The translations under genes were made by a program, and so were the position numbers. A DNA stretch of 12,269 bases from a virus, in IMG/VR virus record IMGVR_UViG_3300009149_005470; one strand, 5' to 3'. Each line of letters begins with the position of its first letter. The first letter of the stretch is position 1. Of this stretch, positions 5,935 to 6,029 are shown piece by piece. Below the pieces are notes generated by a model, which worked only from the letters and a program-made list of their open reading frames with translations, was not told where the DNA came from and did not search any database.

Positions 5935-6029
5935 TTCTCAAGACTAAAGACTTATTAGTTTAATTTTCTAGTCTTTGCAATAAAATGCATATTAACTAGA
6001 TGTAACTAATAAGTCTTTAGTCTTGAGAA
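5935..6029. repeat. Perfect 26-bp inverted repeat (5935-5960 and 6004-6029) separated by a 43-nt spacer; long AT-rich stem-loop or palindromic protein-binding site
   Basis: Left arm ttctcaagactaaagacttattagtt and right arm aactaataagtctttagtcttgagaa are exact reverse complements. On the minus strand a T-rich tract (gggTTTTTGTTTGTTTTGTCTGTTTTTTT) follows 13 nt later. Confidence 0.85.

Follow-up and report, generated by a model that had tools for sequence, protein, structure and literature searches.

What role does a perfect inverted repeat play in the one sizeable non-coding stretch of an uncultured viral genome? The question is raised by the IMG/VR record IMGVR_UViG_3300009149_005470, whose 12,269 nucleotides (the whole stretch analysed here, referred to as the window) carry all their genes on the minus strand and contain, as had been noted previously, a single large intergenic region at 5861-6263 (403 nt), all other gaps measuring 85 nt or less. 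In this region a first-pass annotation had described two 26-bp arms, at 5935-5960 and 6004-6029, separated by a 43-nt spacer. On recount the arms, the one at 5935-5960 reading TTCTCAAGACTAAAGACTTATTAGTT, are 100% complementary, and they form both the longest and the best inverted repeat found in the whole window.

The repeat had been judged to lie far beyond chance, and the controls agree with this: none of 200 dinucleotide shuffles yielded two 26-mer matches. The search for further copies that the annotation had called for returned only the two arms themselves within the window, even with three mismatches allowed, and comparison of the 26-mer with IMG/VR gave no match. The repeat is therefore not a common dispersed element lacking any positional association, since the 26-mer is single-copy in the window and the hairpins of related genomes, described below, occur at the same site only. 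Moreover, an identical intergenic sequence was found in an independently assembled JGI contig obtained from a different sample, indicating that the inverted repeat is not an assembly fold-back; this identical contig and the shuffle controls together exclude an assembly artefact or a chance origin.

When the minus-strand RNA spanning 5900-6060 was folded, as had also been proposed, a free energy of -47.4 kcal/mol was obtained, compared with -21.9 ± 3.3 kcal/mol for shuffled sequences (z = -7.9, with 0 of 200 shuffles equalling it), and the minimum free energy (MFE) and centroid structures concurred on three stacked stems. The outermost joins UUCUCAAGACUAAAGACUUAUUAGUU (6004-6029, read on the minus, or sense, strand), a 5' arm with homologous counterparts in the relatives, to its exact complement, the 3' arm (5935-5960, minus). 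The apex between them (5961-6003, minus) contains the nested ctag palindrome previously noticed in the spacer, which in both the MFE and the centroid structure is a 7-bp stem, UCUAGUU/GACUAGA, pairing 6000-5994 with 5973-5967 and including one G:U pair. On top of it a 4-bp apical stem, UGCA/UGCA (5989-5986 with 5979-5976, minus), closes a 6-nt loop at 5985-5980. These nested apical stems are kept, with substitutions, in the close relatives L007 and L009. The T-rich tract reported downstream of the hairpin is also present, with TTTTTGTTTGTTTTGT at 5922-5907 of the minus strand beginning 12 nt past the hairpin, and a Shine-Dalgarno (SD)-like GGGGG, read from the sequence at 5870-5874 (minus), stands 9 nt before an ATG at 5860-5858; in relatives, AAGGAG occupies the position of this GGGGG.

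That ATG opens g192 (5282-5860, minus), the first cistron after the leader, which encodes a conserved, Cys/His-rich protein of 192 aa. This protein belongs to a large and well-conserved family found on viral contigs of up to 312 kb, and its predicted model (pLDDT 82) returned no fold relatives. Adjoining it is g320 (4305-5267, minus), whose product is modelled with a beta-rich core bearing a conserved Cys cluster, with about 50 aa of disordered linker rich in P/Q/S/T/E and with an invariant C-terminal FSF[DE]D..F tip. No Pfam, PHROG or PDB sequence match was obtained for g320, a sub-threshold double zinc ribbon was seen in 23 of 30 members, and the top fold matches, which are weak (Foldseek E about 2e-3, low TM-score), were the RPA70 core on ssDNA and the SSB-like protein PrgE. 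Judging from the predicted model, g320 is probably a ssDNA-binding-type protein representing a new SSB-like family. Three members of the g192/g320 families (P0007, P0114 and P0222) are labelled in NCBI as archaeal MAGs (Pacearchaeota, Thermoplasmata and Thorarchaeota), and these are probably phage contigs that were mis-binned.

The surroundings of the two genes were read from the 25-kb metagenomic contig of which the window is a part, which in sense order carries genes for an RNA polymerase (RNAP) beta'-like protein, which lies upstream of the window, a 302-aa protein, an RNAP beta-like protein (1366 aa), and proteins of 196 and 89 aa, followed by the gap, and after it g192, g320, a Major Vault Protein (MVP)-shoulder protein (838 aa) and a 335-aa PHROG-29668 protein. 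The beta-like (window 7131-11231, minus) and beta'-like (1004 aa, L002 1381-4395) proteins are each undivided, with the 302-aa gene between them. For both, identity to the rpoB of a deposited phage or host does not exceed about 32%, jumbo phages included in the case of the beta-like protein, which points to a deep, uncultured lineage of phage-encoded multisubunit RNA polymerases, and megablast and tblastn searches of deposited phages gave no close match to the window or to g192. The 838-aa protein (window 1723-4239, minus) of this phage-like contig carries the MVP shoulder domain PF11978 (E 5.9e-20) and a weak Vault_3 repeat; viral MVPs in gut phages were described in a 2023 preprint (10.1101/2023.11.10.566534). 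Its homologues were rejected as a route to syntenic relatives, since IMG/VR holds only three, distant (38% identity) and non-syntenic. At the corresponding position the relatives carrying g192 lack the gene.

Relatives were therefore assembled around g192, giving about 105 non-redundant loci (about 660 kb) with a homologue of this gene and spanning 8-25 kb of each genome, 101 of which, all non-redundant, provided the hairpin statistics. In essentially all loci extending far enough g192 and g320 are adjacent, while different genes precede the hairpin: from the end of the 89-aa gene homologue to the hairpin the distance ranges from 350 nt (in close relatives) to 3.9 kb, with other genes inserted, and among the loci compared only the source contig has the MVP gene downstream of the pair. 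The hairpin accompanies g192-g320 whatever gene stands upstream and tracks neither the RNA polymerase genes nor the MVP gene. The constant adjacency of the pair and the variable upstream gene place the hairpin on the 5' side of g192-g320, rather than at the end of an RNAP block or at the start of a 'vault block'. The proposal that the repeat is a bidirectional barrier between these two blocks is unsupported on the same grounds, and also because the terminators evident in the window, described below, are of a different build.

Searching the 280 nt upstream of each g192 homologue revealed a strong hairpin in 94 of the 101 non-redundant relatives, with a median of 43 bp, 106 nt and -49.6 kcal/mol, and with its 3' end lying 25-80 nt ahead of the ATG. 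Among random 260-nt windows drawn from these loci 3.3% folded at -35 kcal/mol or lower, whereas 90% of the target sites did. Perfect inverted repeats whose arms measure at least 12 nt were concentrated there too, 45 falling within the 200 nt upstream of g192 (about 21 kb in all) versus 47 in the other 640 kb or so, and most of the latter were either short-loop and terminator-like or located inside coding DNA. Moreover, a covariance model made from nine hairpins of one clade and scanned against about 650 kb gave 43 plus-strand matches, all 43 at the target site and none elsewhere. A near-continuous helix of at least 20 bp was present in 75 of the 94 hairpins and one of at least 22 bp in 73, the median being 30. 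The arms share no sequence between clades, and no conserved loop or single-stranded seed sequence was found across the hairpin family. A known RNA family was excluded: in Rfam 15 no family reached its gathering threshold (the best was MIR6288, with 34.2 bits against a threshold of 74), so that the motif is not a described family, and the sub-threshold matches were all of microRNA-precursor type, reflecting a generic long-hairpin likeness to plant and animal precursors. Other long inverted repeats were seen in L010 (8435-8520), L037 (8450-8559) and L070 (1-84); two of these lie in coding DNA, in a topoisomerase/gyrase-like ORF and a Cys-rich HNH-like ORF, and the remaining one, a 26-bp hairpin, sits at the end of its contig and 625 nt ahead of g192.

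We then asked whether the pairing itself, and not the sequence of the arms, has been maintained. MAFFT and RNAalifold left the 3' arms of 21 divergent hairpins unaligned, and pairwise mapping and a covariance-model alignment were used instead. Across 32 disjoint pairs of related hairpins, 81 base pairs were altered on both sides, where 36 were expected under independence, and 65 of these 81 (80%) were still canonical compared with about 37% by chance. Between the window and its closest relative, L007, three changes were compensatory, three were wobble-compatible single changes and none broke a pair. In the covariance-model alignment, which favours the modelled structure because the sequences were fitted to the model, 90.8% of the cells held canonical pairs versus 72.3 ± 0.9% in column shuffles, and several positions swapped among A-U, U-A and C-G. 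On this comparative evidence the hairpin structure is under selection, its pairing being retained by compensatory changes while the stem sequences diverge.

The mismatches that remain are informative about the strand. With hairpins folded with G-U disallowed, isolated 1x1 stem mismatches were of the G:U type on the sense strand in 114 cases and of the A:C type in 13, an excess of about ninefold where the base composition of the hairpins alone predicts about 1.5:1, and the covariance-model alignment gave 111 versus 23. Since a duplex-DNA site or a two-sided cruciform would lack such a bias, the excess of G:U on the coding strand implies that the structure forms, and is selected, in that one strand, the simplest reading of which is the mRNA. 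G:T mismatches are tolerated in single-stranded DNA hairpins too, and we thus take RNA, as opposed to single-stranded DNA, as the simplest reading of the strand test and not as its strict proof. Taken together, it is very probable that a conserved sense-strand leader structure is linked to g192-g320.

Between this hairpin and the start codon the relatives share a second feature, the U-rich box (or T-box), which in the window is UUUUUGUUUGUUUUGU (5907-5922, minus), within a T-rich tract extending over 5896-5925, and which has the family consensus T5[G/C]T[T/C][G/C]TT. It was found in 78 of the 101 relatives, its start usually 33-43 nt ahead of the ATG; it is invariant in the closest relatives, and conservation extends beyond the T-run to positions that are G/C, T, T/C and G/C. 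A weight-matrix scan placed it at the target site in 59 loci, compared with 15 matches in the remaining 660 kb or so on both strands, and in three g192-carrying contigs of 200-245 kb a degenerate 18-mer was found a single time per contig; a looser pattern had so many matches in IMG/VR that it was not informative. The gap from the base of the hairpin to the box is variable, being 12 nt in the window and 0-22 nt across the family, and for 27 of 78 loci a stem is predicted to end within 3 nt of the T-run. In the relatives the spacer that leads from the hairpin to the SD has a median of 38 nt and consists of 74% A+U (44% U).

Several functions proposed for this box could be discarded. It does not behave as a 'fourU'-like anti-Shine-Dalgarno sequence, its mean pairing probability with the SD being 0.17, and the predicted pairing of the SD (0.57) was the same as in shuffled spacers (0.56, p = 0.56). 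Closure of the hairpin by pairing of the box with an A-rich 5' flank appears in some cluster-1 folds; it was seen in 1 of 78 loci when the downstream context was included, and not in the window. As a general promoter or terminator motif the box was rejected because it is nearly absent elsewhere in the 660 kb or so of related sequence.

Upstream of the hairpin, the window carries lineage-specific leader or intergenic DNA (6030-6263, minus; about 200 nt) that is missing from most relatives, whose intergenic regions have a median length of about 180 nt. This stretch includes a small hairpin, a CCTATGTCGATATTAGAAAAAGAGTG block and an 11-nt tandem repeat, TTAATTGAGTG, present 2.6 times at 6142-6170 and reading AACACTCAATT in the minus sense. 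The small hairpin, GGGAAAAA...CUUUUCC (6127-6103, minus), encloses in its loop TGATATAAT at 6118-6110, so that the TATAAT of the candidate promoter near 6110, which looks like an extended -10, is located within that loop. Since stem and loop (6103-6127) are both conserved in L007, L088 and L089, this 'promoter' may instead be part of a second RNA structure. Promoter-like matches are no more frequent in the window than chance predicts (82 versus an expected 80), and -10-like hexamers were not enriched at any fixed distance upstream of the hairpins of the relatives; on both counts a sigma-70 promoter just upstream of the hairpin was rejected, and neither the window scan nor the upstream regions of the relatives allowed a promoter to be placed for g192-g320. 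A leader peptide was also discarded, the 31-aa ORF at 6006-6101 (minus) that enters the 5' arm being reduced to 15 aa in L007 and 4 aa in L009.

Evident terminators do exist in the window, on the minus strand, as short G+C-rich stems at 4269-4295, 1681-1705 and about 565-600, between late-looking genes; T runs follow directly after the first and the last, and an AT-rich stretch follows 1681-1705. These stem-loops show that the genome employs ordinary intrinsic terminators, and they suggest that the host is bacterial. The terminator scan recovered 4269-4295 and 1681-1705 and found none at 5500-6700.

With these observations, the main rival to a processing or stability element is an autogenous translational operator of the T4 gene 32 type, in which g320 (or g192) would bind the U-rich tract beside the folded RNA and spread over the ribosome-binding site (RBS) when free protein accumulates, the hairpin serving as nucleation site or boundary. 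In the T4 and RB69 operators a 5' element is folded, and beyond it a stretch of more than 40 nt with less structure extends into the RBS (PMC535899); here the hairpin and U-box are gene-specific and single-copy, the spacer that follows is A+U-rich, and the operon encodes a probable ssDNA-binding-type protein. However, the assignment of g320 as an SSB is weak, the leader stands before g192 rather than g320, the length of the helix far exceeds what nucleation requires, the UUAAA repeats are absent, the conserved motif being U5[G/C]U[U/C][G/C]UU, and the predicted SD accessibility does not differ from that of shuffled spacers. We consider such an operator unlikely, though a serious contender, and it and the RNase III/stability model are not mutually exclusive. 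A transcription attenuator or terminator, in which hairpin and T-run would halt RNA polymerase before g192 (or let it pass, with an antiterminator) and so insulate the operon, is in our view distinctly unlikely. It would account for the T5-7 run seen behind the hairpin in most relatives, no more than 3 nt from a predicted stem in the 27 loci mentioned above, for the A-rich flank that can lengthen the stem by pairing with the T-box in some lineages, and for the absence of promoter space between T-box and SD, because of which g192 must be read through the element. It accords poorly with a T-run lying 12 nt past the stem in the window, and elsewhere in the family often behind very long perfect stems, with a box whose spacing is set to the ATG rather than to the stem and whose sequence is conserved beyond the T-run, and with an element that goes with the downstream gene and not with the end of the upstream unit; the evident terminators of the window, moreover, are built otherwise, two of them with direct T runs. 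Canonical termination is thus unlikely, and the element does not conform to an intrinsic terminator proper: in place of a short G+C-rich stem with a small loop it has an AT-rich stem of 26 bp topped by a structured apex of 43 nt, the gap to the U-tract in the window falls outside the usual 0-3 nt or so, and the position is not set by the 3' end of the upstream unit.

An element acting at the level of DNA, whether an operator for a dimeric protein, a cruciform, a mobile element bounded by terminal inverted repeats (TIRs), a recombination site, or a single-stranded hairpin for replication or priming, would fit the perfection of the arms in this genome, their location with a short tandem repeat in the largest non-coding stretch of the window, and the tolerance of single-stranded DNA hairpins for G:T wobbles. 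Nevertheless, it is the pairing that is conserved and not the sequence of the arms, the strand bias of the mismatches excludes duplex recognition and two-sided cruciforms, cumulative GC skew passes straight through the site, and the spacing to the ATG is fixed, which argues for a role in expression. Specifically, the operator palindrome suggested by the first-pass annotation is contradicted by arms with no common sequence across relatives and by the 114 versus 13 mismatches, and the suggested recombination site or miniature TIR-bounded element (MITE) by an element that is found once in the window, has no 26-mer match in IMG/VR and keeps its position from one relative to the next, with flanks, aagta (5930-5934) and ataaa (6030-6034), that differ and form no target-site duplication. 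A DNA-level role accordingly appears very improbable. We regard as highly improbable, too, an independent small non-coding RNA gene that would run from the upstream AT-rich region to the T-run and act in trans: a stable hairpin followed by a U-rich stretch is what such a gene would show, and in the lineage of the window some 200 nt of non-coding sequence, including a TGnTATAAT-like motif, are conserved upstream, but in most relatives the entire intergenic gap measures only about 180 nt, and such a gene is also opposed by the lack of -10 enrichment, of a conserved loop or seed and of an Rfam match above threshold.

The inverted repeat is thus probably the DNA copy of an undescribed mRNA processing or control element in uncultured, very large phages. 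It would be the image of a long hairpin in the sense (minus-strand) RNA that precedes g192-g320 as a gene-specific leader or intercistronic element, in the layout long helix, spacer of about 10-25 nt, U-rich box, about 25 nt, SD and ATG, and the hairpin most likely acts after transcription. The helix could be cut by a double-strand RNase of the RNase III class, or could simply block exonucleases; either event would detach the message for g192-g320 from transcripts that begin upstream, fixing where it starts at the 5' end and how long it lasts, while the U-rich box could offer a single-stranded site read by a protein or the ribosome, tuning translation. As a whole statement, comprising the sense-RNA leader and the post-transcriptional action of its helix, this is the best explanation we can offer, held tentatively and judged close to, but just short of, an even call; an RNase III or stability mechanism specifically, argued by analogy, is plausible rather than probable, and the cleavage or stabilisation step and the role of the U-box are what we infer from the arrangement.

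A processing or stability role is favoured because the long helix is the one property visibly maintained, and its length fits RNase III-class enzymes and exceeds that of a protective stem or a nucleation site. RNase III substrates are dsRNA helices of about 20-22 bp or more (two helical turns) in which small interruptions are tolerated, and the window, with 26 perfect bp, has a helix of this length. Of the roles listed originally, an RNase III-type processing site or 5' UTR stability element is therefore the one that fits best, and it now has behind it sense-strand selection, the leader position before g192 and a helix of at least 20 bp in most relatives. RNase III sites are usually not tied to one gene, however, and a single-copy, gene-specific element with a U-box fits a dedicated regulator at least as well. 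Hairpin and U-box might in that case be an undescribed dedicated switch, either an autoregulatory operator for g320/g192 or a signal for the divergent multisubunit RNA polymerase of the phage, with the hairpin prompting a pause, antitermination or initiation. We give this idea a minor share of our confidence; if true, RNA and protein would together make up a new regulatory pair, confined to this uncultured clade of huge phages.

If the processing or control element proposed here is correct, it adds a well-supported, uncatalogued cis-regulatory RNA motif, with more than 90 independent examples and with evidence from covariation and strand, in a clade of uncultured phages whose genomes reach about 300 kb. 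The motif stands at the head of a conserved module of two genes, of which one has an unknown fold and the other is probably SSB-like, and it provides both a short, portable RNA for tests of RNase III cleavage, protein binding and translational control and a landmark for annotation in this clade. It is a solid RNA motif and not a new principle, and alone it leaves the understanding of phage gene control unchanged.

Finally, we compared the element with known systems. With bacterial intrinsic (Rho-independent) terminators and with leader attenuators (lambda tR', for example) the element shares the order of hairpin and then T-run, and the location ahead of a gene block; it differs in its AT-rich stem of at least 26 bp, its 43-nt structured apex, a T-run 12 nt away and a spacing set to the ATG. 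The 5' stabiliser stem-loops of the E. coli ompA leader, the T7 gene 10 leader and Bacillus phage SP82 have stems of 5-15 bp that are required to lie at the very 5' end. Like them, the element places a hairpin in the leader, before a U-rich or enhancer region and a strong SD, but its helix is several times longer than protection requires.

The phage hairpins processed by RNase III include the T7 early-region sites R0.3 and R1.1 and the lambda N-leader and sib sites, and in T7 about ten such sites are spread along a transcript. Like these sites, the element lies between genes or in a leader on what would be the sense transcript, its helix makes some two turns or more and contains nested internal loops, and its structure is conserved independently of sequence; by analogy it would be expected to separate cistrons and to change the stability or translation of the downstream message. 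In contrast to the T7 sites there is here one site, tied to one gene pair and accompanied by a sequence-conserved U-box, and the predicted helices are longer, at up to 54 bp.

The operator of gene 32 in T4 and RB69 is similar in being gene-specific and in placing folded RNA ahead of an A/U-rich tract that leads into the RBS, a tract that is weakly structured in T4 and may be so here, and the operon studied here also appears, from the predicted model, to encode a ssDNA-binding-type protein; the T4 folded element, however, is a pseudoknot of about 28 nt and that of these phages a hairpin of 55-130 nt (PMC535899). The specificity motifs also differ (UUAAA/UAAA in T4, U5[G/C]U[U/C][G/C]UU in these phages), the cistron next to the leader is g192 and the SSB-like gene comes second, and the two elements have no sequence relationship. 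Overall, the motif behaves like the known leader and intercistronic hairpins of phages, yet it had not been catalogued previously, and it combines a conserved U-box with a helix of unusual length, both linked to a single pair of genes within a clade of uncultured large phages.
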